The notes beneath the pieces were generated by a model. The model searched no databases. It was given only the letters and a program-made list of their open reading frames with translations, and was not told where the DNA came from. A stretch of 64,000 nt of DNA, from positions 10,265 to 74,264 of IMG/VR virus record IMGVR_UViG_3300033066_000592; one strand, 5' to 3'. The stretch is from a virus. Its lineage: Duplodnaviria; Caudoviricetes. Below are positions 7,516-32,174 of the stretch, in pieces. A program made the position numbers and the translations under genes. Position 1 is the stretch's first letter; every line of letters begins with the position of its first letter.

Positions 7516-7533
7516 GGACGCGGACCCTATCAA

Positions 7534-8319: not shown

Positions 8320-8325
8320 CGGCCT

Positions 8326-16276: not shown

Positions 16277-19200
16277 ATGGTGATGGTAGCGATTAAGCCA
16301 CCGAGGCGCGTACGCAGATGGCTAGAGCGACTTGATGCGCCTGGCGCAGTGGATGCCGAGAGCTACCACGTCACGTTGTTGCACATCAAAGGCGCTGACC
16401 TGTCGAAAGCTGGCTTTGCCGCTCTGTGCGAAGCCGTCGCCACGACTTGTCGGACGCACAAGCACTTCGCAGCCAAGATCGGCGGCTTCGGTTATTTCCA
16501 GAACAGTCAGCCGAAGCCCTGTGTGTGGGCTTCTGTCGATTCTGTCGCTCTCACAGACGTGCGAAACAGCGTCCTTGCGCATCTCAAGGGCAGCGATGTC
16601 AAGGTCTCAGACGAGCACGGATTCACGCCGCACATGACGCTCGGTTACACAGAGCATGCGCGCAAGTGGAAGCCTGATCATGTGAAGCGCATGCCCGAGT
16701 GGACTGCGAAATCTCTGTACGTCGTGAAAGACGACGTCTGGACCCGCATGCCTCTGACAGAACCCGTGGACGATCGTATGCGTCTTGTGCCGACGTTTGA
16801 GTCAGGCTACCGCGACCTTGAAAAGCTATGGACCTGGCACAAGTCGCTCGTCGTCGTGAATGAATCCCTAGAGAAAGGCCGCAAGAAGGGCGGACAAAAC
16901 AAGACGCGCCGATACTTGCTGCGCATCGAGATGCCCGGTGGTTCACCGGGCAAGCCGAACTACCGCTACGTCTATCCAGATAAAGACGACGTCGTCAGCT
17001 TCGATCCAAAGACGGGCTTCAAACTCAAGCCAGGTCGCAGCATTGCCAAGATCGTCAACGAGAAGCTGTTCGGCGACTACGGCGTAGACTCGCGCACGGG
17101 CGATCCCTACGTGAAAGAGGGCCTGTTTTACGCATACGAGCCACGTGTCAGCACGTCGTACATGAAGCGCGCGTACGGTGAGCCGATTGCCACGGAGACG
17201 CTGAACAAGGTTCGGTTCTTCAAGTACAAGAAGGTTCACGGCTACACGGACGTCGACCTGGGCCCTGGCGTGGCCGCGTCAGGCTACCGGCTGCCACAGA
17301 AGCTGACGCAGCTTCAGATGACCGCTGACGAAGCGGCGGCGGCTCCGGGAAATCTCGCCGCAGAAGGCGCCGTCATCCTCAAACCAGAGGAGTTTGAAGA
17401 GAAGCGACCGTCGCCGTCTCACGACGTGGCACCTGTCGGCGAGAAGTCGATCGTCGTCGTACCAGAACAGACTCCTCTGTCGAAGTTGAACCTGGCTGAG
17501 CCGCTTCCTGACGACGTGGACCCGCTTCAGTACGCGGTGTCAGCAATCGAAGGCACGCGGCCTGGCCCTGGCAAAGCCGTTGTACGCCCGTTCAAGCAGT
17601 GGATGATCGACAAGTTCGGCAGCGAGTCAGGCTTGGTACAAGAGCTTGGCAATCGGCCGGCTACGACGTTGGTGACGCTCGGGCGTTTCAAGCCGACGCA
17701 GAAGAAAGTCCTCGCACGGCTCGAAGAAGAGTGGCGCGGCGTGATTCGGGGCATCGCCAAGCGTGCTGTGTCGGCGTATCGCGTGAGCAACGCATATCTT
17801 GCGGCCAAGGCATCAGATCAGGCCGCTGGCGTGCCGTACGAGAGTCAGAGTTCAGCAGCGCGCGGCTATATGCGTGAAGTCTTCAAAGAGGCCACGCAGC
17901 ACGGCAGTGAGCAGCTGCTGCGCCTCGCTCGCCAGTATGAGCCCACGGTTCATCACGATGATCGTTTCGACAAGTGGCTGTACGGCGCACTAGAGACGCA
18001 GATCGCGCGACACACCAAGCAAGAAGTCGAGCAGAGCAGCGGTGGCGGTGGAACGATCGAGCCGATCGTCAGCGGCGACATCGAAGAGGCCGCACGACGT
18101 ACAGCGCAGCAGGTTGACCTGCAGCCTGACGAAGCCTATGAGCTGAAAGAGGCTGGTCATGACCAGCTGTCAGGCGACGAACTGACGACGTTGTCGACTG
18201 TGACAGGCCCTGCGAAAGCGACACTGCTGCGCACGCTGCACTCGCCTGAGATGCCGCAAGCGTACAGACGAGTGCTGGCTGCGCGCCTGTGGCTCGATTC
18301 GCCTGAGTCAAGCGCCGCTGAGGAGCAGGCCATCGCCAAGCGGTCTGACAAAGGTGTGAAAGGGCCGCAGAGTTTCGAGCGCAACTACACAGGCAAGAAC
18401 GGTATCGCGTCGCGCTACAAGACGTGGATAGACCCAAAGACAGGCAAGCTTGTAGACGTGTCGAAGCTGAATCAGAGCCGACAAGCCGCCCTGTTGTCGA
18501 GCTGGTACGAAGCGGCTAAAGCGCATGTATTTCGGCAGCTGAGCGTACCGATGGCCGAGGCTCGCGCCACGATGCCAGACGTGCATCCGAGCGGCCTCTA
18601 TCAGAATCCGAAGCGTGTGCCGTTCACAGAGCAGCAGATCGCCGACAAGCTGCATTCAGTCGGCCATGGCACAGCTGAAGATGCCGCAGACTTGCTGGTG
18701 GACGCCGCGCTTGGTGGCGGTATGCGCGTGCTGACGCGCGAAGGCGCGATGGTCAAGCGTTGGCTGGAGCTAGAGACGAAGCTGGCGCGTGGCAATCGTC
18801 GACTGTTCTCAGAGCGCACGCAGCATCCGATTGCACAGGAGTCGCTGTCTGGGCCCGTGCCCGCACGTCCCGCGAAAATCGTCGTCATGCCTGAGAAGCC
18901 TGTGCTGGATAAGCACGGCGAGTGGCAGTCGCTACCTGTACATCCGACGCAGCGCTCAGCGCATCCGGCGATCGACTTCTTCTCGTCGACACCGAACCAG
19001 CAGCTTGCGCAACGGCTGGGCATCAATCTGCGACACATCAGTGGTCCAGAGACGGCCAGTGGTGTCTACGCGCATCAGAACGTCAGCATGGGCACCGCCG
19101 CGGAGCACACGCTTGCTGCTGCCAAGCTGGCACACGCGAAGCTGCTCAAGATGCAAGCACTCAAGCCTGCGCGTCTGCACGAAAAGCTAAAGCGCGCTCA

Positions 19201-20032
19201 GGCCGACGCAGATGCTCTAGACAAGCTAGGGTTGAGCCGCACGTCAGCAGGCATGACGTGGAACGAAGCCGGTCAGATCGGCAAGTTCTACAATGCTGTG
19301 CGTGCGCTGCACGCAGCTACGAACACGATCAAGCAAAAGCAGGCGAAGGTCCGTCTCGCCAAGAAGGCGTATCGCAAAGAGGCTGGCAAGGTCAGCATCG
19401 CGGCCAAGAATCCGTTCGACCGAAAGAAGGACAAGCTCGCGCATTCGGTCATGCGACATATCCTCGCTGTGAAACCGACGAGTACGCAGGAACTTGACCA
19501 GGCTGTGATGAACTGGATCGACGAGACGCACGACGTCGAGAGCAAGTCTGCACGGCGGACGTTTTTCAATGCCGTGAAAGAGCATCTACGCAACGAGAAA
19601 GCCGTCAGCAGTGGTGGCGACTTGGCGAAGCATGAAGCCGAGCTGAAGAGTCACGCGCCGACTGCACAGGAAATAGCAGCGCACAAGGCCGCAGCTGATC
19701 ACGCAGCGAAAGCTGGAGCTGCTCTTAGCGCCGTGAAAGTCGCAGGCAAACCGTTCGGTAAGGAAGTCGTGATGCGCTACATCAGCAGCAAGAATCCGGC
19801 TGAGGTTCATGACGAGGTGCGTGCTTCGCTTCAGAATCTTGCATCAAGCGTACATACCGACAAAGAGCTTGCCGAGTTCGAGCTGAACCGTCGCAAGACG
19901 GCCGGCAACACGCTCGTCAAGTCGATGGCTGAGGCTTCGTTCGAGAGCTTCGGTGCAGCGATCGATGCGTTTGATTTCGCGCTTACGATGACCGATTCTG
20001 CACGTATGGCTGCCGAAACGGTCGTGGTGTGA
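16277..20032 (+). CDS. 1251-aa multidomain protein: N-terminal 2H phosphoesterase, central sigma-70-like region, C-terminal shared helical module
   Basis: RBS AGGAG before ATG 16277. HVTL (16367) and HMTL (16631) 2H motifs; IRGIAKRA...QHGSEQLLRLARQYEP...RFDKW is sigma region-2-like; shared module at 19430-19606. Confidence 0.85.
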   Translation: MVMVAIKPPRRVRRWLERLDAPGAVDAESYHVTLLHIKGADLSKAGFAALCEAVATTCRTHKHFAAKIGGFGYFQNSQPKPCVWASVDSVALTDVRNSVLAHLKGSDVKVSDEHGFTPHMTLGYTEHARKWKPDHVKRMPEWTAKSLYVVKDDVWTRMPLTEPVDDRMRLVPTFESGYRDLEKLWTWHKSLVVVNESLEKGRKKGGQNKTRRYLLRIEMPGGSPGKPNYRYVYPDKDDVVSFDPKTGFKLKPGRSIAKIVNEKLFGDYGVDSRTGDPYVKEGLFYAYEPRVSTSYMKRAYGEPIATETLNKVRFFKYKKVHGYTDVDLGPGVAASGYRLPQKLTQLQMTADEAAAAPGNLAAEGAVILKPEEFEEKRPSPSHDVAPVGEKSIVVVPEQTPLSKLNLAEPLPDDVDPLQYAVSAIEGTRPGPGKAVVRPFKQWMIDKFGSESGLVQELGNRPATTLVTLGRFKPTQKKVLARLEEEWRGVIRGIAKRAVSAYRVSNAYLAAKASDQAAGVPYESQSSAARGYMREVFKEATQHGSEQLLRLARQYEPTVHHDDRFDKWLYGALETQIARHTKQEVEQSSGGGGTIEPIVSGDIEEAARRTAQQVDLQPDEAYELKEAGHDQLSGDELTTLSTVTGPAKATLLRTLHSPEMPQAYRRVLAARLWLDSPESSAAEEQAIAKRSDKGVKGPQSFERNYTGKNGIASRYKTWIDPKTGKLVDVSKLNQSRQAALLSSWYEAAKAHVFRQLSVPMAEARATMPDVHPSGLYQNPKRVPFTEQQIADKLHSVGHGTAEDAADLLVDAALGGGMRVLTREGAMVKRWLELETKLARGNRRLFSERTQHPIAQESLSGPVPARPAKIVVMPEKPVLDKHGEWQSLPVHPTQRSAHPAIDFFSSTPNQQLAQRLGINLRHISGPETASGVYAHQNVSMGTAAEHTLAAAKLAHAKLLKMQALKPARLHEKLKRAQADADALDKLGLSRTSAGMTWNEAGQIGKFYNAVRALHAATNTIKQKQAKVRLAKKAYRKEAGKVSIAAKNPFDRKKDKLAHSVMRHILAVKPTSTQELDQAVMNWIDETHDVESKSARRTFFNAVKEHLRNEKAVSSGGDLAKHEAELKSHAPTAQEIAAHKAAADHAAKAGAALSAVKVAGKPFGKEVVMRYISSKNPAEVHDEVRASLQNLASSVHTDKELAEFELNRRKTAGNTLVKSMAEASFESFGAAIDAFDFALTMTDSARMAAETVVV

Positions 20033-20033
20033 C

Positions 20034-22220
20034 GTGCATCTGCATTACGAGGACATCAGAGCTGACCTTGCGTACCTGAGCCCGTTTCCTGTGGAAGCGG
20101 CTAGCGTGCGCAAGGTCGTACAGGGTTATGAAGGCGTGTTGTACAGCGCCGGCCGTGCCTATATGTACACGCTGAACGGTCGGGGACTTCGCTTCGTAGG
20201 CGTGCCTGATGAAGCCGCAGACGACGCTGCGCGAGCGCACGATCTGTCGATGGACGCAGAGCGCGCGTTGTCGCTGGCCGAGAATCGTCGTGTGTCAGCG
20301 GCTGAGGCCAGCGAAGCCGTACAGATGAACGGCGCTACTGTCGGCCAGGTGCTGATCGTCAAGGCGAGTCCAGGCGCGCACCACGCAGGTTACATGCGGC
20401 GTGATCCACGCACAGGTAAGTTGGAGCAGGTGTCGCCGCTTGGTTACACGCCAGAGAAGCCACCGCCGCGCGAGACGAAGCATTATGCGGCAGTGAGCGT
20501 GAATGCGGATGTCGAGCTGGAGTCTGACGACGAGCTTGGGCATCAACTGCTCGCGCATCTCATCAAGCGACAGCCCAAGAATGAAAAGCAGCTTGCCGCC
20601 GCTGTCGAGAGCTTCGTTGACGACAGTTTCGACATCGAGAACGCAGCTGCTCGTAAGAAGTGGCTGAAAACGATTCACAGCTATCTGACGGAAAACGGAA
20701 TCACAGAGACGGCAGACGCCAATGACGAGGAAGCCGAAGGTGATGCCGAGCAGGATGCGTGGAGCAGTCGCAAGGCACAGGCAAAGCTTCAGATTCCTGT
20801 CACGTTCAAACCACGTGGCACCAAGCTGCTTGTGAATGGGCAGCCCGTCTCTGTATCGGCCGATGTCGAGCAGGCGTGCTATGCGTACGCCAAGCGCTTC
20901 CTCGTCAAGGGCGGTACCGTCAAAGACCAGGCGCGCTTCGTCAAGAACTTCGAGTCGAGCTTGCGCAAGCTCGGCGTGCCCAAAGGTGACATTGGCTATA
21001 AGCACTTCGTTGTTCAAGCGAAGAAAGACCTCGCGGCGCCTGTCAGCAAGAAGGGTCCGAAGGACGAGAGCCCGCAAGCACGGCCTGACCTGTACGTGAA
21101 GCAAGACGGCGTTATGACGCGCGTGATTGCTGCAACGCTTCCGACAGGTGGCTTCTACACGGGCAAGAAGGGCTACGGCACGTGGGTTCCTCCTGTACGT
21201 GAAGAAGACCTTGTGCTCAACGTGTCGCCAGGCGGAGCGCCAGCAGGTTGGCGTGGTAAGGTCATCAACGATCCGTCGAAAGATTTCTACCTGACATGGG
21301 AACACCCTGTCGCCAAGAAGCGCGGTTACGTCTACATGAGCCGCAAGCAGGCGGATCTGGAGAAGTTTTTTGCCTGCACAGTGCTCAGCAAGAAGTTGCA
21401 AGACATCTCCGACGATGTGTTCAAGGACATCACGAGCAAGAGCACACCGTCAGCCACCAAGGCCGCGGCGTTGTGCGTGATGCTCATAGATCAGCATCAC
21501 TTCCGTGTGGGCAACGAGACGTTCGCCAAGCAAGGCACGTACGGTGTTGCGTCGTTTCGTGCCAAGCACGTGAAGATCGACGGCACGAAGGTTACGTTTG
21601 AGTTCGTTGCCAAGAAGCAAGAGCCGTGGAAGCGCGAAGTCGACTTCGCTGGTATGCCGTCAGCTCTCGCATTCCTGAAGACGTGCATGAAGGGCAAGAA
21701 GCCTGACGATCGGCTCTGGTCTGGCACTGACTGGTCTGCATCGTCGAAAGACGTGAACGAATATCTGGCGCCGTACTCAGCTGATGGCGTCAAGATCACG
21801 GCGAAGTCATTGCGCACGTACCATGCGAATCGGCACATGACGGGCTACCTGCGCAAGCTGGAAGAGGCGCAGACGGCCTACAAGCTCACCGATGTCGAGG
21901 TGCGCAAGCTGTACAAGGGCGTCAAGCTCAAAGGCAAAGACGCCGCGCTGCTCACGCGCAAAGCCAAGAAAGACGGACCGAAGCTGTCGGACTTCTTGGG
22001 CTTCGTGCCGTATGTCGGCGCCAAGGGCAAGGGCAGCGCCATGACGGGCGTGCTGCCGTCTGTGGCAGCAAAGATGGGCCACACGACGGGTGCCTGCCGG
22101 AATAACTATATCGATCCTGTCGTGGTGACACGGTTCGCTGTACTGCACGGCTGGGACGATCGAACACCAAAAGAGCGCAAGTCTCGTGAAGACCTGCCAG
22201 GGTATGAGCCCGATGCGTGA
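20034..22220 (+). CDS. type IB DNA topoisomerase domain fused to a ~400-aa N-terminal extension
   Basis: FRVGNE, TYGVASFRAKHV, FVAKK, TAKSLRTY, KMGHT and CRNNYIDP together give the R-K-R-H-Y catalytic set of TopIB. Confidence 0.9.
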   Translation: MHLHYEDIRADLAYLSPFPVEAASVRKVVQGYEGVLYSAGRAYMYTLNGRGLRFVGVPDEAADDAARAHDLSMDAERALSLAENRRVSAAEASEAVQMNGATVGQVLIVKASPGAHHAGYMRRDPRTGKLEQVSPLGYTPEKPPPRETKHYAAVSVNADVELESDDELGHQLLAHLIKRQPKNEKQLAAAVESFVDDSFDIENAAARKKWLKTIHSYLTENGITETADANDEEAEGDAEQDAWSSRKAQAKLQIPVTFKPRGTKLLVNGQPVSVSADVEQACYAYAKRFLVKGGTVKDQARFVKNFESSLRKLGVPKGDIGYKHFVVQAKKDLAAPVSKKGPKDESPQARPDLYVKQDGVMTRVIAATLPTGGFYTGKKGYGTWVPPVREEDLVLNVSPGGAPAGWRGKVINDPSKDFYLTWEHPVAKKRGYVYMSRKQADLEKFFACTVLSKKLQDISDDVFKDITSKSTPSATKAAALCVMLIDQHHFRVGNETFAKQGTYGVASFRAKHVKIDGTKVTFEFVAKKQEPWKREVDFAGMPSALAFLKTCMKGKKPDDRLWSGTDWSASSKDVNEYLAPYSADGVKITAKSLRTYHANRHMTGYLRKLEEAQTAYKLTDVEVRKLYKGVKLKGKDAALLTRKAKKDGPKLSDFLGFVPYVGAKGKGSAMTGVLPSVAAKMGHTTGACRNNYIDPVVVTRFAVLHGWDDRTPKERKSREDLPGYEPDA

Positions 22221-23547
22221 CGACTACACGAAATATTTTCTGAGCCGCGTAGACGGCAGTGAAGACGCCTACAACGGCTACCTACAAGCGCCTGGTGACG
22301 ACTTGGTGTTTGTGGCCGAGCGGCACGGCCGAGAAGACGTCGTGACGAAATCGACGGTGCTGATGAAGGCCGAGAAGTATAAGGTGTTGGGAGTAGCATT
22401 TGGCTATGCGAAGCACATTTCCTATCAGCGTCTAGATCCCCGCACTGGAAAGATGGTGCAGGTGAAAGGCGGTCGTGATACGCCGATAGGAAAGACGTCG
22501 CTGACACCGCACCACTTCGACATTACGGTGCAGAAGAAGCATGGTCTCAGTGACGATGAGACGGCGATGGCCGTACTTCGCTACGTCGCGCAGAAGAAAG
22601 TCCGCACAGAAGGCGAGCTGCACGAGGCTGTGCAGGAGTTCGTGGAGAAAAATTACGACTCCGAAAGCTCAGAAGCTCGGGGCAAATGGGTGAGCACGAT
22701 TCTGAAAGCCCTGTTTCACCACAAGGCTGTACAGGTCACGCATCCAGGTGACGACATTGCGTACGGCAATATGCGCGTGCGTGATATGGCCATGGTGAGC
22801 CAGTGGGTACAGGGCTCCAACAACACCGTCGGTTCTGTCAGGCTCCGTGTCGGTGTTGCGAAACTGTTTAAGCAGGATATCGAGCGCGTCACGGAACGCG
22901 CTCGAAAGAATTCATCTGACAAGAAACGTTTTGAGCGCATGTTGGCTGACGCCAAGGCCGACAAAGACCTCGTCGCTTCTGTGGAGCGCGTAGCGGCGCT
23001 GTCACAGTCTGCTTACAAGGGTCAAAAGACGGTCGTGCTGCATCGCGCTATCAGCAAGGAACAAACAGCTGAGATTCGGAAACAGCTAAAGCTGAAGCCC
23101 GGTGTGACTGCACGTGGGAAGGTCATTACGATACCCGTCGATAACGTGACGTCGTTGTCAGAGAATGCTGCTGCGGCACATTCGGCGTTCGCCGGTTTTG
23201 ACGGCATGACTGTACGGGTCGAGGTACCCGTGTCTGCCATCGTGATGTCGTATCGGGCAATGCCGTCCACGATGTCGCTAAGCGGCGACACTGAGTGGGA
23301 GGTAGTTGTCGCTACGCCAGGTAAGCTTCATGCTACGATCGTAGCCGACAGATATCTTGGTGAGAATTCGTTACCGGAAGCTCCTATTAAATACCAAAAA
23401 TCTTCTTTACGGGCTTTGGCTGAAAAAGAACGTGCACGTTTTGAATCTAGGTACACAAAATTAAATCCCAAGCAGCACAGTATCTACAGCACCTATTGGA
23501 AAAAAACGCCTGCGGAATTCCTGCTCGAAGAAGATGTGTTTTCATGA
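22213..23547 (+). CDS. 444-aa protein with shared helical module and C-terminal ADP-ribosyltransferase-like domain
   Basis: VVLHRAI (R), VTSLSE (S-x-S) and TEWEVVV (E-x-E) follow the R-S-E clade ART pattern. Start at ATG 22213 overlapping the upstream stop. Confidence 0.65.
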   Translation: MRDDYTKYFLSRVDGSEDAYNGYLQAPGDDLVFVAERHGREDVVTKSTVLMKAEKYKVLGVAFGYAKHISYQRLDPRTGKMVQVKGGRDTPIGKTSLTPHHFDITVQKKHGLSDDETAMAVLRYVAQKKVRTEGELHEAVQEFVEKNYDSESSEARGKWVSTILKALFHHKAVQVTHPGDDIAYGNMRVRDMAMVSQWVQGSNNTVGSVRLRVGVAKLFKQDIERVTERARKNSSDKKRFERMLADAKADKDLVASVERVAALSQSAYKGQKTVVLHRAISKEQTAEIRKQLKLKPGVTARGKVITIPVDNVTSLSENAAAAHSAFAGFDGMTVRVEVPVSAIVMSYRAMPSTMSLSGDTEWEVVVATPGKLHATIVADRYLGENSLPEAPIKYQKSSLRALAEKERARFESRYTKLNPKQHSIYSTYWKKTPAEFLLEEDVFS

Positions 23548-24065
23548 AAACAAAGCCCATAGCGCTCACAGTAGACATCGACGCAAACGGTGGTAACGAA
23601 TGGCTGCACGAGATTCGTCGCAGGCGCGCGGCGCAACAGCGCATGCAGAAGGCGCTACCCCAACCGCAAGCCGAGAAGCCGGCCAAGCAGCTTGAGCCTG
23701 CGAACAAGCACCAGGGCACCAAGGCTGCGAAAGTCGCGGCCAAAGGCAGCGGTCGGCCTCGCTACACCTACCCGACCGAGAAGAAGTCGGCACAGGCTGT
23801 GGCAGCCAAGCAGGAAGCTGTGATGGTCGCACCTGATGGCGTCGATCCACAAGCATTTGCCACCAAGCTGGGCCTGTCCCTGTCGACGCTCAAAGGCACC
23901 GTACAGGAGTTTGTGAGCGAGCCGAAGATGGGTGGCCGTGAGGGCTTCGCCAAGTTCATGCGCAGCACCGTAGGTAAAGCGTTCATGACGCGCAACGGCG
24001 TGGGTGACGACTACTTCGGCAAGCTGTACGATGTGTTCACGAAACCCCCACAGCAGGAGAACTGA
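23544..24065 (+). CDS. hypothetical head-associated protein
   Basis: ATGA overlap; MQKA motif followed by a Lys/Pro-rich linker and GRPRYTYP. Confidence 0.65.
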   Translation: MKTKPIALTVDIDANGGNEWLHEIRRRRAAQQRMQKALPQPQAEKPAKQLEPANKHQGTKAAKVAAKGSGRPRYTYPTEKKSAQAVAAKQEAVMVAPDGVDPQAFATKLGLSLSTLKGTVQEFVSEPKMGGREGFAKFMRSTVGKAFMTRNGVGDDYFGKLYDVFTKPPQQEN

Positions 24066-24066
24066 G

Positions 24067-24579
24067 ATGCCGATGCAGACACCGACCATTGCAGAACGCA
24101 TGAGTGCCGCCCTTCACGACGATGACGATGCCATCGAAAAGGGCGGCGCCGACAAGCTGAAGGTGAACAAGGTGCCGTTTCCGCACAAGAAGCGCACGGG
24201 CCCCACAACGGTGCGGCCTGGCGGCAATGTGCCGAAGCACGGCAACACGCCGGCCCAGCTTAAGGGTAAGATCAAGAAAGGCGACGAGGCCGAAGGCGTC
24301 GATGAGACCGACGGCAGCGTGCTGACGCCGCCCGAAGGCGTTGTCGAGAAGGGCAAGGGCGCGTCCTGCAAGAGCTGCGGCAAGTATGGCGCGCTGTGCA
24401 AGTGTGAGGGCAGCATGCAAAAAGGCGAGGACACCGAAGACAAGCCGGCGCGTGTCGGAGCTTCGGATTTCGTCAAGAGCATGCACGGCATGACCGACGA
24501 TGACATCGCCCGCGCCGCGCAGTCCGGTATCCTCGGTCTTGGCGGCACGCCGGCCTCGCTGGGCTTCCCCTCCGCGTAG
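24067..24579 (+). CDS. low-complexity internal head protein candidate
   Basis: RBS AGGAG; strongly C/G-ending codons; repeated IEKG, VEKG, MQKG and FVKS motifs; CKSC...CKC. Confidence 0.7.
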   Translation: MPMQTPTIAERMSAALHDDDDAIEKGGADKLKVNKVPFPHKKRTGPTTVRPGGNVPKHGNTPAQLKGKIKKGDEAEGVDETDGSVLTPPEGVVEKGKGASCKSCGKYGALCKCEGSMQKGEDTEDKPARVGASDFVKSMHGMTDDDIARAAQSGILGLGGTPASLGFPSA

Positions 24580-24594
24580 TACCCCTCGCTTCTG

Positions 24595-24625
24595 TTGCCT
24601 AGAGCCGTTCTGGCTCGACTATACT
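24595..24625 (+). promoter_or_regulatory. possible internal sigma70-type promoter (TTGCCT-N19-TATACT)
   Basis: TATACT at 24620-24625 lies 10 nt before ATG 24636. The -35 spacing is long and there is no Shine-Dalgarno sequence. Confidence 0.35.
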
Positions 24626-24635
24626 GCCCCACATA

Positions 24636-27600
24636 ATGCTGACAGGCAAAACGGTGTCAGGCGGCAAGCTGCGCGTGCGCGTGCAGCCGCTGCCCTACGC
24701 GCATCTCCAGCAAGTGGCTGACGGTTTGACGCACGTGTTTACGACACGTATGCGAGAGCTGGAAGCCAAACTGAACGCGCGTCTCGCTCACACGGTAGAG
24801 CGTCTACAGCCAGCCGTGCTCATCGTGTCTGACGAACATCTGAGCAAAGCGGCTTCACCTAAGCAGAATGCATCTGGTCAAGCACGCGCGAAAGCCGGCG
24901 AGGGTCAGACGCGCACGTATCAGCGACCGCCAGGCGGTGTGAAGACGCCAGGCCAGCGCGGCGGCAAGTTCTACTACACGGCGACAGGCAAGCTTCGTTA
25001 CGGCGAGAAGCCGCAGCCGCAAGAACGTGAAGCCACGCACGAAGAGGTGCGCCAGCATTTTCAACACTTCCGGCCAACGCCATTCATGTCGAATTCTCGG
25101 GAGCACAAAGACCTGCTCCAGGCGATTCGTGATCTGAAGACCGGTGGCTTCGATGAGACAGATGACACGCTGCTCGGCTGGTGGGAGAAACACCAGAAGC
25201 AGTTCAACAAGCTATGGGGCCTGTCTGACGAGGATGTGGCCGGCGATCTGTCTGCGATCCAGCTACAAGACAACGACGGTCGAGAGCTGTCATATGAGCA
25301 GGCGGTTCATGAATTCCTGATGGATCAAGACTGGGGTGACGCCTCTGAAGCTGACGTAGAAGAGGCGCTGCGCGATGTCATGACGCGCTATCAGAATGCG
25401 CTACGTGACCCGGCCGTCATGAAGAAGGCCGAAGCCATCGCAGCGCAAGTGGACCAGCAGGTGTATGGCTGGTTCACGAACATGGAAGCGACAGCCGATC
25501 ACTATGACGGCCTGGCTGCGTCGCTGTCCGGTGATCCTGACGTCGCTGTTGCGAACATGACAGCGGCGCTTGGCGCTATGGAGCTGGTTTTCAAACCAGG
25601 CAAAGGCCAGAAAGCTGGCGATCTGACTGGTGCGATTGCGCCGAACAGCGGCTGGCTCGACGAAGGCGGATACCTATCGACGACAGGCGCCGATCGCGTA
25701 GCGAGTCTCAACGTCGGACAGCTTCTCGCTATCTACGCTGGCGCCAGGCTCAACGAGGCTTTCGATCCAGACACAGCGACCTACGACACGCTTCACGGTG
25801 GCAAAGGCCCGCAGTCAAAGCTGGCCGAAACTGTGCGCAAGCTCATCGCGCAGAAGCTGAAGCTGGACCCTGCGGGCGCGGTCATGACGACGGTGCTAGA
25901 TGGCGTTCACGCAACCATCGAGCGTCTGGCTACGACGTTCTCGAATGCCAACACAGGCCGTGACACGTCAGGTCTCGCCCGCAAGTTGCTCGACATGCCG
26001 AGCGACAAGCTCACCAAAGGTGGCGAGGGCGTTCAGAAGCTGATCGAGAAGGCGCAGAACTTCGAGCAGCTGAAGGCCGACGCGCTCAAGGCCCGTGAGG
26101 ACGAATCCTGGTCTGTGCCCGACACGATGCTCGAAGGCAACGTCGGCGGGAAGAAGATCAATCCGATCACAGGCAAACCGTTCGACCTGTTCAAGCACCA
26201 AAAACAAGCCATCAACTGGGCCAAGACTGTCAAGCGTGGGCTTCTTGCAGACGATGCCGGTATGGGCAAAACGGCCGAAGTGATTGGCATTTGCGAGTCG
26301 CTGAAGCAAGACGGCAAGATCAAGCGCGGCATCTTGTTCCTACCACCGTCGCTTCTTGCACAGTGGCCAAAAGAGATCATGAGCTTCGCGCCAGAGATGG
26401 CAAAAGGCGGGCGCATCCTGAACCTGTCTGGCCTGTCCCTGGAAGCTCGCAAGGCCGCGCTTCAGAGCGACATGGCCAAGAACGCCGAGTACATCCTCAT
26501 GAGCACGGGCTCACTTGCCTATGGCAAGTCCGAAGACGGCGAGGAGGATGGCGGTATGGATGAGGGCTTGGTGCAAGCTCTCGCGGATCTCGACGGCGCT
26601 GTGTTCATCGACGAAGTACATCAGGGCGGCTTCAAGACAGGTAGTCAGGGCGTCGCTGGTACGAAGGATTACAGACCGGGTAGTGTTAAGCATGAGATCA
26701 CGAAACGCATCATCGGTGAGCGTGATTACGCGTTTGGCATGACAGCTACACCATGTCCAAACAACCCGATGGACCTGTATCACTTGATAAACCTCTTTCA
26801 CCCAGGGTGTGTTGGGGATCAGGCTGAGTGGGAAGAGAAGTTGTCGGGCGTGAAGTGGGACGGCCATTCGTGGCGCATACCGCATCCTGAGAATGTGCAA
26901 GAGATTAACCGTCGTATTAAGCCGTTCGCGCTACACCGTTTGATCACGGACAAAGTTGTTGAAGAAGACATGGGCAAGCAACTCCCGCAGCTCACGTCTA
27001 ACGCGATAGACTTAGAGCCAGCGACGGCAAAGTGTCCCGTAACAGGTTGGAGTCAGCTTGATTACCTGCGACCTGGCGGTGTTTGCGATGCTTTGGCGCA
27101 GAAACGCTTAGAGATCATCAACGCGAAGCGTGAAAAAGCCGGAAAGCCTGTGTTGGAGGGTGTAGACGCAGAGACTACCGTGCGCATGATCCACATGGGC
27201 CTAGAGCGCCAGGCCGCTATCAGTCCAGAGCTGATAGATCCGCGCTACCGCGGTCCTGCCGCCAAGCTCGATCGCGTTGTTGCCGATGTCATCGCCCACT
27301 TCTCAGGCGGCGCTGGTCAGGAAGGCAAGCCGATCGTTCTGTTCGACAGCTTCCCTCGCAAGTCTTTTCCCGTCGTCAAGCGCAAGCTTGCGGAAGCCGG
27401 CATCGACGTGAGCGGCATCGGCGAGATCATGGGTGGCAAGTCAGCGCAAGAACGCGCTTTCATGCAGGATATGCTCAACGGTTATGAGCGTGTGAATCCT
27501 GCGACGAAAGAGAAGGAGTTCGTACCAGGTAAGCTCAAGGTGCTGCTCGTAGGTACGAAGGCTGGCGGCGCTGGTCTGAACCTACAAAAAGCGGCGAATC

Positions 27601-29018
27601 GCTCGATGTTTTTGAGCGAGCCGTGGGACCCCGCGAGCAAGCGCCAAGCACTTGGCCGCGTGTGGCGCACAGGGCAGAAGTCGCACTGTACCGCTGACAA
27701 CTACCGCATGATCGGTACCTACGATATGCGTGTGGAAAATAAGCTCGGCACCAAGCAGCTCATGACGACTGCTTTGCTGGGCGACGCTGACGTGGACTTC
27801 AATCAGAGTGCTGACGAGCACATCCAGCGTCTGACGGGCCGCGAACTTGGCGGCGAGAACATGAGCACCGAGCAGATGGCGGCTCTGTTGGCAAACGCTG
27901 GTAACTTCAGTATCGACGCCGATTCGCTGGGCGATGACTTCGATGACGTGAGCGAAGACTCGTTTGACGATTCTGAGTTCATGGACAAGAAGCTCAAGCG
28001 GTCAGAAGAAAAGAAGCTGGAGGCTGACCCAGCAAAGCGCGCCGCGCTTCAAAAGAAGGCGCCACAACTGGCCGAAGTCGTCGACATGAGTGCCGAGTCT
28101 GACAAGTGGCACGCAGAGGCGATGCGTCAGACGGCCAAACAGCGCTATGACATCGCGATGATGCAAGCGAAGGTCGCCGAGACGGCCGGTGACAAGCAGA
28201 TGGCCGACAAGGCACAGAAAGCAGCGGAGCGCGTTAAGGCAGCCTTTCCAGAAGCTTTCGGCGCTGTCGAGCGTAAAAAGCAGGAAGTCGACACGGACGA
28301 CCTGTTCGCCAAAAAGCAGCAAGCGAAAACCGAGTCGGTACAGCGTCAAGCGCAGACGGTAAACGAAGGCAAAGAGCCCACGCGCGGGGACATGAGCCTT
28401 GCTGCGGCCAACTATGTTGCGCGCAACAAAGATCACTTCAGTACCAAGCAGCGCAAGGCCGCGCAAGAAGTGATCACACAGGCAGAGCGCCTGGGCATCG
28501 ACAGTGATACGTGGCGACCTAACGAGGAGCGGCTTGACCGGCTCGCCAAGCACAAGGGCCAGATGCCCAAGATGGGCGACGTGCTCAAAGACCTCAAGCA
28601 GCGGTGGGCGGAACACAACTGGCTTGAAGCAAACGGTCACACGAAAGAAGCAAAGGCCGCACGCAAAGAGATCGATCAGCAGCATGGCTGGCTGCCTGAA
28701 GAGTTCGATGACGTGGCGTCTCAGCAGCAGCAAGAGATGGCGCACAAAGGCATTGGCGTGAAGCCGAAGAAGCCGGAAGGCTTTGTGGCACCTACGGCGT
28801 TTCCGGCCAAAAACCCCTTCAAGAAAAAAGAAGACCCTCTCGCTTACGACGCGATGGAACACCTGCTTGCGAAGCAGCCCAAGACGTATGACGATACGCA
28901 GGCAGCGCTACTCCAGCACGTCAAGAAGACGATGAAGGGCACACCCGAAGCGCTTAACAAGTTCGCCACGCAGGTGCACAAGTACCTGATCAAGAACAAG
29001 GGTTTGACCTATGGATGA
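24636..29018 (+). CDS. 1460-aa SNF2-family ATPase/helicase with long N- and C-terminal extensions
   Basis: LLADDAGMGKT, PPSLLAQWPKEI, IDEVH, MTATPCPNN, GTKAGGAGLNLQKA and QALGRVWRTGQ are SNF2 motifs I-VI. Shared module at 28833-29006. Confidence 0.92.
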   Translation: MLTGKTVSGGKLRVRVQPLPYAHLQQVADGLTHVFTTRMRELEAKLNARLAHTVERLQPAVLIVSDEHLSKAASPKQNASGQARAKAGEGQTRTYQRPPGGVKTPGQRGGKFYYTATGKLRYGEKPQPQEREATHEEVRQHFQHFRPTPFMSNSREHKDLLQAIRDLKTGGFDETDDTLLGWWEKHQKQFNKLWGLSDEDVAGDLSAIQLQDNDGRELSYEQAVHEFLMDQDWGDASEADVEEALRDVMTRYQNALRDPAVMKKAEAIAAQVDQQVYGWFTNMEATADHYDGLAASLSGDPDVAVANMTAALGAMELVFKPGKGQKAGDLTGAIAPNSGWLDEGGYLSTTGADRVASLNVGQLLAIYAGARLNEAFDPDTATYDTLHGGKGPQSKLAETVRKLIAQKLKLDPAGAVMTTVLDGVHATIERLATTFSNANTGRDTSGLARKLLDMPSDKLTKGGEGVQKLIEKAQNFEQLKADALKAREDESWSVPDTMLEGNVGGKKINPITGKPFDLFKHQKQAINWAKTVKRGLLADDAGMGKTAEVIGICESLKQDGKIKRGILFLPPSLLAQWPKEIMSFAPEMAKGGRILNLSGLSLEARKAALQSDMAKNAEYILMSTGSLAYGKSEDGEEDGGMDEGLVQALADLDGAVFIDEVHQGGFKTGSQGVAGTKDYRPGSVKHEITKRIIGERDYAFGMTATPCPNNPMDLYHLINLFHPGCVGDQAEWEEKLSGVKWDGHSWRIPHPENVQEINRRIKPFALHRLITDKVVEEDMGKQLPQLTSNAIDLEPATAKCPVTGWSQLDYLRPGGVCDALAQKRLEIINAKREKAGKPVLEGVDAETTVRMIHMGLERQAAISPELIDPRYRGPAAKLDRVVADVIAHFSGGAGQEGKPIVLFDSFPRKSFPVVKRKLAEAGIDVSGIGEIMGGKSAQERAFMQDMLNGYERVNPATKEKEFVPGKLKVLLVGTKAGGAGLNLQKAANRSMFLSEPWDPASKRQALGRVWRTGQKSHCTADNYRMIGTYDMRVENKLGTKQLMTTALLGDADVDFNQSADEHIQRLTGRELGGENMSTEQMAALLANAGNFSIDADSLGDDFDDVSEDSFDDSEFMDKKLKRSEEKKLEADPAKRAALQKKAPQLAEVVDMSAESDKWHAEAMRQTAKQRYDIAMMQAKVAETAGDKQMADKAQKAAERVKAAFPEAFGAVERKKQEVDTDDLFAKKQQAKTESVQRQAQTVNEGKEPTRGDMSLAAANYVARNKDHFSTKQRKAAQEVITQAERLGIDSDTWRPNEERLDRLAKHKGQMPKMGDVLKDLKQRWAEHNWLEANGHTKEAKAARKEIDQQHGWLPEEFDDVASQQQQEMAHKGIGVKPKKPEGFVAPTAFPAKNPFKKKEDPLAYDAMEHLLAKQPKTYDDTQAALLQHVKKTMKGTPEALNKFATQVHKYLIKNKGLTYG

Positions 29019-29409
29019 TCACGCGATTTTCGAACTCGTGCGCGCTGACGGTAAGAAGCGCGCACGAGTGACGACACCGAAAGACACGCTGCGCGTGCAC
29101 GACGCCGACGAGCTTCGTGCACAGCTTGATCACTACAGCAAGGCCAATGGTGTGACGTTCCTACGTCACGTGGTCGTTGACTCGCAGCAGGCACGTCTTC
29201 AGTACGTCAAGTACCTGCGACCGGCTTTGCGCTACTACTGCAAAAAGTTTGGCGTACAAGTGCCCGACTGGCTCAAGGCCGATACAGCTTTCTCAACGCT
29301 GTCCGCACACGAGCAGCACACGCTGTTCGGTGAAACGGTCAAGTTTCCTGTGCGTGAATTCGCAGAGGTGAACACGTCTGGTTCGAAGCAAGGAAAGATC
29401 GCGTCATGA
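29011..29409 (+). CDS. hypothetical protein
   Basis: 132 aa, coupled to neighbours on both sides. Confidence 0.65.
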   Translation: MDDHAIFELVRADGKKRARVTTPKDTLRVHDADELRAQLDHYSKANGVTFLRHVVVDSQQARLQYVKYLRPALRYYCKKFGVQVPDWLKADTAFSTLSAHEQHTLFGETVKFPVREFAEVNTSGSKQGKIAS

Positions 29410-30110
29410 GCGCCGGCCTTTTGGACCTGACAGTGCTGACGCGCGAGGTCGACGTAGAGTTCACGGCGTTCCTCTACGAACTTTTTGGGTCGGCCGTTGT
29501 CGACGCGGAAAGCGCCATGATCGCTCGGACTACCTTGCACAAGAAGTCCGAGCGCGTCGGTATGCAGCTGTTGGCTGAGGCGAATAGCAGTCGACCTACG
29601 CAGCGGTTAGCTCGTGAGCGGCTGGTTCTGCGGGCGCAGGCACTTCGTGACGACGTGCAGCGTGGCTTGACGCAGGCGTGGCTGTCTGCCGATGGCCAGC
29701 CGGTCGAGGCTCGCGTGGAATTTATGCGTCGCGAAATCGTGCCTCGTCTTGTGATGGACGCTGTGCGTGCATGGGTTCGCGTCGGCACGGCAGAGGTCTG
29801 GACGCTCTACCAGGAAGCGCGAGCACAGGAAATCGTCGATAGTACGGGCTTGCCTGATCCGTATGTGCACAAGATAGGTGCCGAAGACTGCTGTGAGTTC
29901 TGCGTGCATCTGTACGGCTCCGAGGGCAAATACAAGACGTACCGGCTGAGCGAACTGCGTGGGAACGGCACGAATGCGGGCCGCGAGCCTCGGCAGGAGG
30001 TTCTAGAGGGCAAGGTTGTGCCTGAACAGCATCGTGACTGGTTGCCTGTGCTGGGCTCTACGCACGGCTGGTGCAACTGTGCGTTGCAGGCGGCGGGAGC
30101 ACCTACGTGA
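29406..30110 (+). CDS. MuF/SPP1-gp7-like minor head morphogenesis protein
   Basis: DCCEFCVHLY...LSELRGNGTNAGR...WLPVLGSTHGWCNCAL corresponds to the CxxC...HPxCRC signature; located in the head module. Confidence 0.75.
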   Translation: MSAGLLDLTVLTREVDVEFTAFLYELFGSAVVDAESAMIARTTLHKKSERVGMQLLAEANSSRPTQRLARERLVLRAQALRDDVQRGLTQAWLSADGQPVEARVEFMRREIVPRLVMDAVRAWVRVGTAEVWTLYQEARAQEIVDSTGLPDPYVHKIGAEDCCEFCVHLYGSEGKYKTYRLSELRGNGTNAGREPRQEVLEGKVVPEQHRDWLPVLGSTHGWCNCALQAAGAPT

Positions 30111-30961
30111 GCGAGTCACCGTTTGCACGTGTGGTTCTGCACCAGAAACCTACAAAGCTGGAAACGCCAGATTCTGGCCGCACAGGCTTGGTGCGCATTG
30201 CGACGTACGAGGGCGGCACCAAAGCTGTGGTCCGTGTGCAGAGTCACGAGCTTGAAGGTAAGCGCACCAAGGGCTTCACCAAGCAAGACGGGCTGCCTGT
30301 GAAATCACAGCCCGTCAAAGACGCGGCCTACTACGCACTGGCGAAGCTGTTGCGTTGCGACGACATCGTGCCCGAAACGTTGCTGAAGATTACGCGACGC
30401 GGCAACGACGTTTCATACCAACGATTCGAGCGAGCACTGACACTGCGTGACCTAGAGCCGGCTTTACACAAGCTGGAAAAGGGCAGCGACGAGTGGCGTG
30501 CTGCGGCGGCACAAGCCATGAAAGTCGTCTCTGACGAAGACTGGCTCAAGGCAGCGCTGCTCGGCCTTGTTGCGGCTGACCGAGACAGGCATCTCAAGAA
30601 CTTTGGCGTGCGTGTCTTGGTTGAAGGAAACCGCATCGTCTATAGGCTCGTGCTGTGGGACAACGGCGTTTGTCTCGGACAAGCATTCAAGAAGTATCGC
30701 AGCGTCGTGCATGAGATCCTGCATGCTCGCAAACTGGTGTTCGGTGACGTCTTGGCGCGCGTAGACGACATACGTGCTGACGACGTGACAGACTTACTGG
30801 TTACGAACCGCATCCACCCGACGGAAGCACAGCAAGCCGGCAAGCGGCTTGACTTCGTGCGCCGATACCCCCACCGGATGCCTTGGAACATACTCACAGG
30901 CATGCCCGGCTATCCTGCCTATCGAAATTTCTTCAGAGGCGGGGTAGATTGGCGGGGATGA
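30107..30961 (+). CDS. PI3K/PI4K/HipA-like kinase-fold protein
   Basis: DAAYYALAKLLRCDDIVPET, ADRDRHLKN (DRH-x-x-N catalytic loop) and LVLWDNG (DxG). GTG start at 30107 overlaps the upstream TGA. Confidence 0.75.
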   Translation: MSESPFARVVLHQKPTKLETPDSGRTGLVRIATYEGGTKAVVRVQSHELEGKRTKGFTKQDGLPVKSQPVKDAAYYALAKLLRCDDIVPETLLKITRRGNDVSYQRFERALTLRDLEPALHKLEKGSDEWRAAAAQAMKVVSDEDWLKAALLGLVAADRDRHLKNFGVRVLVEGNRIVYRLVLWDNGVCLGQAFKKYRSVVHEILHARKLVFGDVLARVDDIRADDVTDLLVTNRIHPTEAQQAGKRLDFVRRYPHRMPWNILTGMPGYPAYRNFFRGGVDWRG

Positions 30962-31746
30962 GTACAGCACACGAGGTACAGCGTCTTCTTGAGGAGGACG
31001 AATTTTCGCTGTGGGTTCCGCCTACCGCGACGTCAGGCTTTACGCTCCTGTCGAAAGCTGGCGAAGTTCCTGCTGACGATGCCCCGCGCATCATTCACGG
31101 CTTCTGCACGACAGAGCACGAAGACCGGCAACAGGAAATCGTGATCGCCAAGGGCCTGGACTTCGCACCGTTCATCAAGCATGGCTGGTTCAACGACAAT
31201 CACTCGCCACGAACGGCCGACGTGTTGGGCTGGCCTATCGAAGCTCGTCTCTACGAAGACAAAGGCTGGTACACGAAAGGCCAGCTTCTGAAGGGCAAAA
31301 AAGCCGCTGACGACGTATGGGAACTGGCTGTCGCCCTTTTCAAGAGTGGTAGCCCTCGACGCCTGGGCTTTTCGATCGAAGGCAAAGCGACGTTGCGCAA
31401 TGCAGCAAATCGCATTGTCAAAGGCGTTGTGCGTCATGTCGCCATCACGCGCGATCCTGTGAACCCGAACTGTCAGCTCGACGTGCTGTGCAAGGCTTTC
31501 GCGCCGTCGGAAGAAATCGAGCGCGCCTACACGATCAGCAAGGCCGCGATGATCGGCCATCAACATCCCGTTATGCACGGTCACGCAGCTCTTGTGCCTG
31601 CAAACTTGGAAGCTGCACGTATCATCCGACGAAAACAAAAACGTTTGTCGAAGGCAGACGTAGAACATCTCGTACGTCAAGAGATGCAAATGTCCGACGC
31701 CTCCGTGATGCGCGTCGTGGACTGGATCATGTCGCAACAACAGTGA
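30958..31746 (+). CDS. prohead (capsid maturation) protease
   Basis: IIHGFCTTEHEDRQQEIV, GWFNDNH, LGFSIEG and VAITRDPVNP match the HK97/herpes-fold protease (His and Ser motifs). Confidence 0.9.
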   Translation: MSTAHEVQRLLEEDEFSLWVPPTATSGFTLLSKAGEVPADDAPRIIHGFCTTEHEDRQQEIVIAKGLDFAPFIKHGWFNDNHSPRTADVLGWPIEARLYEDKGWYTKGQLLKGKKAADDVWELAVALFKSGSPRRLGFSIEGKATLRNAANRIVKGVVRHVAITRDPVNPNCQLDVLCKAFAPSEEIERAYTISKAAMIGHQHPVMHGHAALVPANLEAARIIRRKQKRLSKADVEHLVRQEMQMSDASVMRVVDWIMSQQQ

Positions 31747-31753
31747 GGACCAG

Positions 31754-32125
31754 ATGAACAAGGCACCGACGCAGACCACTCGCCGTATCAACCTGACCGA
31801 TCCCCAGATCAAGCTGTTTCAGCTGGCGAGCGGTCAGAGTTTTACGATCCCGGAATCGATCGACATCCCTCCGATGCCGAACAACCTGATGGCTGCGGCC
31901 ACCAGTCGGCGCGCCACTGGCGGTGAGATTTTTGGCTTCACCGATGACCAGGGCGTCATCGAGCCGCATCGGGATTTCGGCCTCGTGCTGAAGCCTGGCG
32001 ATCGGCTGGTGCACGGTGCCATCGGCGCGGTGGCCGCGAACACTTCGATCCTGTACGTCAACGACGTCGAAGTGCTGCGAATCACGTGCAGCGACATCAG
32101 CGTGGTGCTCGGCTTCTACAGCTAG
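31754..32125 (+). CDS. hypothetical head-module protein
   Basis: RBS GAGG; high-expression-type codons; lies between protease and scaffold. Confidence 0.7.
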   Translation: MNKAPTQTTRRINLTDPQIKLFQLASGQSFTIPESIDIPPMPNNLMAAATSRRATGGEIFGFTDDQGVIEPHRDFGLVLKPGDRLVHGAIGAVAANTSILYVNDVEVLRITCSDISVVLGFYS

Positions 32126-32174
32126 GCGCTGTCGTTTCACATCACCGAACGCTGAAAAGCACTGGAGCTTCAAG

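Follow-up and report, generated by a model that had tools for sequence, protein, structure and literature searches.

We analysed a 64,000-nucleotide stretch of uncultured phage DNA (hereafter the window), which covers positions 10,265–74,264 of the 74,264 bp IMG/VR contig IMGVR_UViG_3300033066_000592, and found that a 14.7 kb cassette of nine open reading frames (ORFs), here named A to I (16277–30961), occupies the interval between the portal and prohead protease genes. The reading we favour, with a probability of roughly 0.65, is that the cassette proteins are enzymes loaded into the capsid, processed by the prohead protease and injected. We infer packaging, cleavage, ejection and every biochemical role from the gene order, the recognisable domains, the elements shared between proteins, the swapping of payloads among relatives and the statistics of a protease-site motif.

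The major capsid protein (MCP) of the window is 32–34% identical to the MCPs of SPO1-like Bacillus phages, and the phage is an uncultured myovirus with an SPO1-type head and capsid. The G+C content of the window is ∼59%. CheckV estimates the contig to be 63% complete, which at 74 kb gives a genome of ∼118 kb, so this is not a jumbo phage. No near-identical DNA was found among 50,697 phage records.

All nine ORFs lie on the plus strand, with spacings of −79 to +56 nt between neighbours. The upstream border is the portal gene (14409–16265; PF04860, E = 1.4e-19; phrog_12, E = 2.9e-48) and the downstream border is the prohead, or head maturation, protease gene (30883–31746; phrog_1028, E = 8e-45), which falls in no Pfam family and for which the PDB gave no meaningful sequence match. 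A small ORF, a scaffold-like protein (32016–33140; phrog_15087, E = 3.4e-4) and the MCP (33205–34680; phrog_752, E = 2e-84) follow, and then the adaptor, sheath and other tail genes, with the whole order from the portal onwards reading along the plus strand. In the cultured Bacillus phage Nachito (L017, OP380492.1), whose MCP is 33% identical, the portal and protease genes are spaced by 84 nt with no genes between them. Since the two genes are adjacent there, the 14.6 kb block between portal and protease is a genuine peculiarity of the window lineage, and both the ORF map and the comparison with Nachito bear out the original prediction that nine coupled ORFs fill this slot. This position is one ground for the capsid-cargo reading. 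A second is composition: the cassette proteins contain 8–10.6% lysine, compared with 2–3% in the tail proteins, in which they are like the internal proteins of T4, reported to contact DNA via lysines (PMC3012670).

About ten relative contigs keep the portal–protease interval with varied content, and their MCPs are 35–49% identical. The set conserved among the relatives consists of the core of A, D, E, F, G, H, I and the protease; the remaining content changes from contig to contig. A type IB topoisomerase (TopIB; B in the window) is present in the window, L009, L011 and L012 and absent from G001 and L010, where C and the 2H phosphoesterase domain of A are missing as well. The ADP-ribosyltransferase (ART)-like unit has a gene of its own in the window (C) and is fused inside A in P0002, whose A is 88% identical. 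The 2H domain belongs to A in the window and L009; in L024 and L025 it follows a leader and a NUDIX domain. Contig L008 carries a NUDIX-ART polyprotein, and L025 encodes an 828-residue protein (2761–5247) with an S-adenosylmethionine (SAM) lyase domain (PF23780, E = 2.6e-7) and 17 protease-site motifs. Contig G002 has a DdrB-ParB protein and a MuF-like+InPase protein. Different small proteins occupy the slot directly after the portal in G001, L010, L008 and G002, and domains shift between fused and separate states across the relatives. The comparison proposed alongside the original prediction, of interval synteny, payload variation and conserved tags, thus came out in its favour: the interval is kept, the payloads vary and non-catalytic elements are conserved. 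That the same interval holds different payloads in different phages is a further argument for capsid cargo.

Three non-catalytic elements recur on these different enzymes. The first is an N-terminal leader, which in B spans residues 1–111 (20034–20366) and ends in IVK↓A, where the arrow marks a predicted cut. It is homologous to the leaders of the TopIB proteins of L009, L011 and L012 and of the NUDIX-ART protein of L008 (E = 1e-9 to 1e-19); the leaders of L011 TopIB and L008 NUDIX-ART are 54% identical to each other (E = 5e-43), and both resemble residues 5–133 of B. The second element is a motif, H-x-x-Y-x-R-x-DPRTGK, modelled in C as a β-hairpin and located in B at residues 118–135 (20385–20438). 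Payloads are preceded by [LIVMF]-x-K-[AS] and then, 5–20 residues on, by this hairpin motif, a pair found in B, C, the segment inserted in P0002 and the TopIB proteins of L009 and L012, twice in the NUDIX-ART protein of L008, and as a variant in P0015 and P0018. When metagenomes were scanned for the leader pattern, 43 matches to the pattern came up, none of which was confirmed against C. As a separate observation, the core of A has its own DP[KR]TG[FK] copies (at residues 243 and 719; 16967–17080 and 18431–18475), which are kept in homologues and recall the DPRTGK hairpin motif of the payload leaders.

The third element is a helical module of ∼75 residues, identified by BLASTP and a hidden Markov model (HMM) in A (residues 1037–1122; 19385–19642), B (residues 151–240; 20484–20753), C (residues 109–198; 22510–22779) and F (residues 1384–1460, the extreme C-terminus; 28785–29015). 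The pairwise BLASTP E-values range from 1e-14 to 9e-6, and across the entire 74 kb record the HMM finds exactly four matches (E = 1.8e-33 to 6.6e-30), each inside the cassette, in agreement with the claim that four proteins share one module. Its position is the same in orthologues, with two copies in the F orthologue of L012. Among 1.84e9 representative proteins the module occurs in 16, one of which (P0014) looks like low-complexity noise; the remainder, scanned with Pfam, are A-like, SNF2, TopIB and C proteins together with a few small ones of unknown origin. AlphaFold models the copy in C as three helices (pLDDT ∼75), and this copy gives weak matches to winged-helix domains, including kleisin N-domains (Z 5.0–5.7).

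It had been proposed that loading occurs through shared tags. The shared elements are indeed conserved, but the ∼75-residue module is probably not the tag, since it would remain part of the mature proteins as predicted and bears a weak resemblance to winged-helix domains. The N-terminal leader ending in a predicted protease site is the better candidate for a capsid-targeting signal, and the module may anchor cargo to the genome by contacting DNA or protein, or else serve for docking. The occurrence of common leader, hairpin and module elements on different enzymes supports the capsid-cargo reading.

To assess processing, we counted the protease-site motif [LIVMF]-x-K-[GSA] in all 60 proteins of the window and compared the counts with shuffled sequences. 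The motif is strongly enriched in only three of them: the scaffold-like protein (14 copies, 2.1 expected, z = 8.7), the protease itself (8 copies, 1.1 expected, z = 7.5) and E (5 copies, 1.0 expected, z = 4.4). The corresponding counts in G001 are 12, 6 and 7 (with 0.9 expected for its E), and they are similarly high in L024–L026; in L024 and L025, the 436- and 828-residue proteins are also as rich in the motif as scaffolds. Over positions 5467–8401, Nachito has 10 copies in its scaffold-like protein and 9 in its protease, and its MCP carries LSKA at residue 26. The motif falls in a single N-terminal column in eight of eight aligned MCPs, Nachito included, and the predicted maturation site of the window MCP is IRK↓A (residues 38–41).

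In the cassette, the motif is found at conserved columns and domain borders. It is conserved at two columns of A in six homologues, one of which is the junction between the 2H domain and the core, and it marks, as MQK↓A, the start of similarity among the D orthologues; in G002 it brackets the InPase domain. A and F contain fewer copies than shuffling predicts, with 3 against 5.6 in A and 2 against 5.3 in its G001 orthologue, a trend of only 1.1–1.6 standard deviations (SD). The overall pattern fits a protease that would degrade the scaffold and itself, mature the MCP and trim cargo at domain borders, and the enrichment, the conserved columns and the border positions together argue for the favoured reading.

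A further gene outside the cassette also carries the motif. The 338-residue protein encoded just upstream of the portal (13388–14404), which has no family match, contains four copies where 1.3 are expected, and the G002 protein at the matching position contains six (z = 3.9); this pre-portal protein may be processed in the prohead too.

Protein B (20034–22220; 728 residues) consists of the leader, a protease-site motif, the hairpin motif, the module and a type IB topoisomerase (PF01028, E = 1.4e-27; PDB 6z01, E = 1e-24). The assignment is firm, with a PF01028 score of 97 bits over a cut-off of 23.7 and a complete catalytic pentad R-K-R-H-Y, in which the RVGNE, FVAKK, LRTYHA, GHT and NNYIDP stretches align to 6z01, 2b9s and 2f4q. 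In its N-terminal and core part, the protein most resembles the long archaeal (Thaumarchaeota) and eukaryote-type enzyme 6z01, while the spacing between the catalytic His and Tyr is that of the short bacterial and pox type. A tblastn search with the TopIB domain (20787–22220) gave a match in one of the 50,697 phage records, a 485 kb uncultured phage (LR745208.1), and a scan of viral contigs with TopIB found no relative.

Protein C (22186–23547; 453 residues) has a leader, the predicted site LMK↓A, the DPRTGK motif, the module and an ART-like domain (residues 277–400; 23014–23385). It matches the segment inserted in P0002 (BLASTP, E = 2e-32), which itself gives a weak match to the DRAT family PF07357; C has no Pfam match. 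The R (HRAI), S (TSLS) and ExE (EWE) motifs of its ART-like domain align with those of the P0002 segment. In P0002, this unit is inserted at the LEK↓G point of A and is flanked by a duplicated motif. We compared the modelled domain with known structures using VIA-align, and residues 277–400 returned ART folds only (Z 4.2–5.6), from a model of low confidence in this region (pLDDT 50–70) and of poor quality overall (pLDDT 43.9). We therefore call C ART-like at the level of fold and motif.

For protein A (16277–20032; 1251 residues), only five homologues were found among 5.8e9 proteins. From N- to C-terminus it has a 2H domain, a large core that includes the sigma-like region, a copy of the shared module and a tail, and its core is conserved in L006, L008, L009, L010, L011 and L012. 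The N-terminus is firmly a 2H phosphoesterase (residues 9–140; 16301–16696; PF13563, E = 1.8e-14, 54.5 bits over a cut-off of 27; PF02834, E = 1.3e-10; TIGR02258, E = 6e-12). Both HxT motifs are present (YHVTL and PHMTL) and are mostly kept in the homologues that have the domain, with Arg replacing the first His in one of them. In an alignment of A with six homologues that are 34–39% identical, LEK↓G, the site predicted for the prohead protease where the 2H domain borders on the core (residues 198–201; 16868–16879), is present as [LI]-x-K-[GSA] in all six, as is a second predicted site, LVK↓S, at one column near the C-terminus (residues 1213–1216; 19913–19924).

The core of A contains two sub-domains that resemble sigma factor regions 2 and 4. 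The region-2-like domain (residues ∼456–594; 17642–18058) is modelled by AlphaFold with a pLDDT of ∼85, and the region-4-like domain (residues ∼640–760; 18194–18556) includes an RLWLD stretch that is invariant in six of six homologues. In the model of residues 440–800, the first 150 residues have a pLDDT of ∼85 and the sigma4 part 50–76. With VIA-align, an exhaustive search of 48,161 chains, the sigma2 domain of SigB ranks first for the former (Z = 8.4, root mean square deviation 2.3 Å over 89 aligned residues) and is followed by many further sigma2 domains, at a Z in the range that is common for helical models; the latter matches region 4 of SigL (Z = 6.5), SigD4 (6.0), SigE (5.9), SigR (5.8) and SigF (5.5; root mean square deviation 1.7 Å).

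Sequence comparisons of the same region point in the same direction with low scores. Outside the 2H domain, the PDB profile matches of the A family are to sigma factors only, apart from two at noise level, and fall in region 2.1–2.2; they are sub-threshold (SigA, E = 0.13; FliA, E = 1). An hhalign comparison with an alignment of Escherichia coli RpoD, RpoS, RpoH and FliA picks out the same region 2.1–2.2 stretch (P = 0.012, probability 3.6%). A Foldseek search with the model of residues 440–800 returned sigma factors in all of its top 50 matches, none of them significant (E = 0.16 or worse). A phmmer search of A against the PDB found nothing, and the Pfam sigma models PF04542, PF04545 and PF08281 have no match at E ≤ 10 anywhere in the 74 kb record.

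These low scores leave room for a second interpretation, possible if doubtful, in which the sigma-like region is a generic helical arrangement and A is a structural or ejection protein, for instance a channel-forming protein or portal plug, with no role in transcription. The silence of the Pfam models, the hhalign probability, the Foldseek E-values and the VIA-align warning that Z-scores below 8–13 are common for helical models all speak for it. It sits less well with the finding that two separate sub-domains match sigma2 and sigma4 respectively and in the order of a sigma factor, a coincidence that, as far as the models go, is hard to obtain by chance. Sigma domains also make up most of the top 37 VIA-align matches among the 48,161 chains, and the profile matches concentrate on region 2.1–2.2, which is the core-binding region. 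On balance, true homology of residues 456–760 to sigma factors is probable, if well short of certain. That the core of A is a highly divergent sigma-70-family factor that is carried in the capsid, freed from the 2H domain by the protease, injected, and able to reprogram the host RNA polymerase core before phage gene expression is a further step that we put forward only tentatively.

Protein F (24636–29018; 1460 residues) is conserved in all close relatives and is firmly an SNF2 ATPase over residues ∼480–1230 (PF00176, E = 1.2e-14, 54.6 bits; PF00271, 28.7 bits; phrog_62, E = 2.4e-49), with motifs I, II and VI present as GMGKT, DEVH and QALGRVWR (QxxGRxxR). It matches the large helicase/methylase families phrog_62 and phrog_11801. 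The SNF2 ATPase is preceded by an N-terminal region of unknown fold, for which a search returned close orthologues only, and methyltransferase families gave no match in residues 1–480 even at E ≤ 10; the module closes the C-terminus.

Protein H (29406–30110; 234 residues) is a MuF-like head morphogenesis protein at the level of its fold. It has no Pfam match, and its Atlas model (pLDDT 0.63) resembles clusters that carry PF04233 in 53–93% of their members (TM 0.64–0.70), including MuF+ART, MuF+InPase and portal+MuF proteins. H is also similar to the N-terminal part of the InPase protein of G002. The MuF-like family is portal-associated and often fused to injected effectors (PMC5512222), and the presence of such a gene in the block adds to the case for injected cargo. 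Protein I (30071–30961; 296 residues) probably has a PI3/PI4-kinase-like, or HipA-like, fold (Atlas features 0.96 to PF00454 clusters), with a DRHxxN loop (DRHLKN) and a WDNG motif kept in its orthologue. HipA_C matches it below threshold (E = 0.01, 16 bits against a cut-off of 30.5), and we assign it as PI3/4-kinase-like at the level of fold or motif.

The three remaining proteins are small, and D, E and G have no family in Pfam, PHROGs or NCBIfam, while C, H and I have sub-threshold matches only. Protein D (23496–24065; 189 residues) is basic (pI 10); similarity to its orthologues starts at its MQK↓A motif (residue 50), it has a weak match to SigZ region 4 (E = 0.012), and a D-like part is fused to the NUDIX-2H protein of L025. 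Protein E (24004–24579; 191 residues as the longest ORF) is scaffold-like. This ORF overlaps D by 62 nt, and its alignment with the orthologues begins only at residue 24; translation therefore probably starts at the ATG near 24067, which directly follows the stop codon of D. Protein G (29011–29409; 132 residues), of unknown function, is the most conserved cassette protein, with 63% identity to its G001 orthologue by BLASTP, 51–58% to orthologues in the alignment and 42–46% to those of L024–L026; a scan of viral contigs with G recovered only G001. We considered G as a free-standing copy of the shared module and rejected this (hhalign P = 0.13).

All seven domains named in the original prediction survive this analysis at two levels of confidence: 2H, TopIB and SNF2 are firm, while the sigma-like, ART-like, MuF-like and kinase assignments stand at the level of fold or motif. 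The catalytic residues are intact in the 2H, TopIB, SNF2 and ART-like domains and in the kinase loop, which further favours injected enzymes.

Under the capsid-cargo reading, the cargo proteins would be made late, along with the head proteins, and would enter the prohead via their N-terminal leaders and via the MuF-like H at the portal. Trimming by the prohead protease would follow at [LIVMF]-x-K↓[GSA] sites on the borders of leaders and domains; it would, for example, free the 2H domain from the sigma-like core of A and remove the leaders of B, C, D and F. Ejected along with the DNA, the cargo would take effect at the very start of infection. The conserved A core, F and I most likely act on transcription start, DNA and host proteins, and the variable slots (TopIB, ART-like and 2H here; NUDIX, SAM lyase, DdrB-ParB and InPase in relatives) look like counter-defence and DNA topology functions.

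The same proteins might instead be packaged for the mechanics of the phage's own DNA rather than for host takeover or counter-defence. TopIB would then relieve twist during packaging or ejection, SNF2 would pull or organise the genome, and E and the leaders would form an inner core or scaffold comparable with the inner body of phiKZ-like phages. Both TopIB and SNF2 do have duplex DNA as their substrate, lysine is abundant in the basic cassette proteins, E and the 436- and 828-residue proteins of L024 and L025 have the motif density of scaffolds, and the module has its weak likeness to DNA-binding winged helices, kleisin N-domains among them. Against this, the ART, NUDIX, 2H (with a weak Acb1 match), SAM lyase, DdrB-ParB, InPase and kinase domains have no obvious mechanical role, the variable payloads match a published catalogue of injected conflict effectors (PMC5512222), and TopIB is dispensable, as its absence from G001 and L010 indicates. 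We consider a purely mechanical role unlikely.

Several points weigh against capsid loading and injection. Packaging and ejection are argued from position, analogy and sequence statistics. As whole proteins, A, B, C and F contain the protease-site motif no more often than chance, and the motif is a degenerate tetrapeptide, so that single sites are predictions; a literature search found no experimentally determined cleavage site or specificity for an SPO1-type (Herelleviridae) head protease. The sigma, ART, MuF and kinase assignments come from folds and motifs, partly in low-confidence models. The module and leader were not detected in the more distant G002, nor the module in L008, L024 and L025. 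Finally, the mature products would be very large, at ∼115 kDa for the core of A and as much as 160 kDa for F, and would need to traverse the tail. Large ejected proteins do have precedents in the N4 virion RNA polymerase and P1 DarB.

In a further alternative, the cassette would encode ordinary intracellular enzymes for replication, transcription or anti-defence that were inserted in the head cluster and are not parts of the virion, and the shared segments would reflect recent duplication or recombination only. The indirect nature of the evidence for packaging and the absence of overall motif enrichment in A, B, C and F are compatible with this, and phage late operons do hold unrelated inserted genes. 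Such an origin is harder to reconcile with an interval that is kept between phages of 35–49% MCP identity while its content shuffles, with motifs at conserved columns and domain borders, with one leader serving unrelated enzymes in different phages, and with a MuF-like gene inside the block; the trend towards motif depletion in A and F, within ∼1.6 SD, would also fit exposure to the protease. We regard ordinary intracellular enzymes as quite improbable and retain capsid-loaded, injected cargo as the preferred reading.

Elsewhere in the window, a thymidylate-kinase-like gene (8689–9369; phrog_761, E = 1.2e-25) and a ParB-like gene (11236–12342; phrog_2159, E = 1.5e-12) lie upstream of the head module, and a gap of ∼690 bp free of ORFs (7715–8402), without an Rfam family or tRNA, interrupts an otherwise tightly packed genome. 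No tRNA or Rfam family was found in the window as a whole, and no large terminase was recognised in it. The tail sheath protein (41651–44368) has 905 residues and is matched over residues 7–897 by the 489-position profile phrog_279, so it must contain large insertions. Among the relatives, the portal gene of L008 (119 kb; 4466–7732) encodes 1088 residues with an intein (PF14890 Intein_splicing and PF14528 LAGLIDADG_3) inside the portal domain.

The original prediction held that no such combination had been described, which proved overstated, as injected multi-enzyme polyvalent proteins were published in 2017 (PMC5512222) and T4 cargo carrying a capsid-targeting sequence (CTS) is also known (PMC3012670). 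The injected-cargo strategy is already established through the T4 CTS proteins, the polyvalent proteins, the P1 Dar system and the SPN3US ejection proteins. What is new here is the split and reshuffled multi-gene form in an SPO1-type head module, and with it this leader, hairpin motif and module; the sigma-like and TopIB payloads, which are absent from the polyvalent catalogue, and the predicted reliance on the ordinary head protease also look new.

The likeness to T4 is that unrelated enzymes share a leader ending in a predicted protease site. The leader common to B and to the TopIB and NUDIX-ART proteins has no sequence relation to the T4 CTS and is thus an analogue, not a homologue. The T4 CTS is ∼10–19 residues long and T4 gp21 cuts after glutamate, whereas the leaders here have 50–190 residues, a predicted cut after lysine, and then the hairpin motif and a retained module. 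The cargo here also forms one block of large enzymes between portal and protease, while most T4 internal proteins are small. In T4, the internal proteins have diverse payloads and only the CTS is conserved; it directs these proteins to the scaffolding core and is cleaved off by the prohead protease before they are injected (PMC3012670).

The polyvalent proteins described by Iyer, Burroughs, Anand, de Souza and Aravind in 2017 carry 2H, ART, SNF2, kinase, DdrB-ParB and InPase domains, and are encoded beside portal and MuF genes. Their predicted injection would serve to overcome defence and to jump-start transcription; the paper's text is silent on sigma factors and has topoisomerase only in the title of a reference (PMC5512222). 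Our relatives carry two of that paper's families, PF18763 and PF18823. A polyvalent protein combines at least two disparate effector domains in a portal or MuF context, and this description applies to A (2H and sigma-like core) and to its P0002 counterpart (2H, ART-like and core), as well as, near the portal, to NUDIX+ART in L008, NUDIX+2H in L024 and L025, and DdrB-ParB and MuF-like+InPase in G002. The toolkit here differs in being mostly split over nine genes and in its predicted processing by the prohead protease rather than by a zincin-like peptidase domain. From the MuF (SPP1 gp7 family) fusions, which H recalls through its Atlas neighbours with MuF+ART and MuF+InPase and through the MuF-like+InPase protein of G002, the window differs in that H is bare and the enzymes are separate proteins with their own leader.

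The ejection proteins of SPN3US, phiKZ and 201phi2-1 have propeptides of 111–254 residues that are cut by the prohead protease at a short motif, and these phages deliver a virion RNA polymerase with their DNA (PMC10052503). Internal head proteins with long N-terminal propeptides and a delivered transcription machine are thus common ground. The phiKZ-like phages, however, inject a multisubunit RNA polymerase, where here a sigma-like factor is the candidate and would work with the core enzyme of the host, and they belong to another capsid lineage with another cleavage motif; the genome here is also only ∼118 kb. In P1, the large helicase-containing DarB and DdrB are packaged in the head and injected with the assistance of small head proteins (PMC9024508, PMC12810830, PMC5512222). 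The DdrB-ParB domain of G002 and the phrog_62 and phrog_11801 matches of F recall this system, although DarB has an N6-adenine methyltransferase fused to its helicase and none is detectable in F. To our knowledge, the P1 dar genes do not lie between portal and protease. Homologues of DarA or Hdf were not seen, in analyses that included no search aimed at them. Outside phages, poxvirus virions package a type IB topoisomerase that is available at the onset of early transcription. Poxviruses belong to an unrelated realm, and the core of B aligns best with the long type of 6z01, while sharing the short His-Tyr spacing of the bacterial and pox enzymes. For an injected or packaged phage sigma factor, a full-text literature search returned no case among the texts it could reach, which is not proof of absence.

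If the capsid-cargo reading is correct, this clade illustrates how a phage can assemble, and rearrange, a set of enzymes for injection. Its simple parts would be a leader and protease site, a hairpin motif, an anchor module and a payload that can be exchanged. The predicted loading rules are explicit enough to be tested and to be reused for loading foreign proteins into capsids, and from the motif analysis one would expect SPO1-type head proteases in general, those of cultured Herelleviridae included, to cut after lysine. The list of payloads (2H, NUDIX, SAM lyase, ART, DdrB-ParB and InPase) points to counter-defence that is delivered ahead of gene expression. As capsid cargo, both a sigma-like factor and TopIB would be novel. 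The former, if true, would provide a third route to early transcription besides promoters recognised by host sigma factors and injected virion RNA polymerases, and the co-injected TopIB and SNF2 proteins would then prepare the template.

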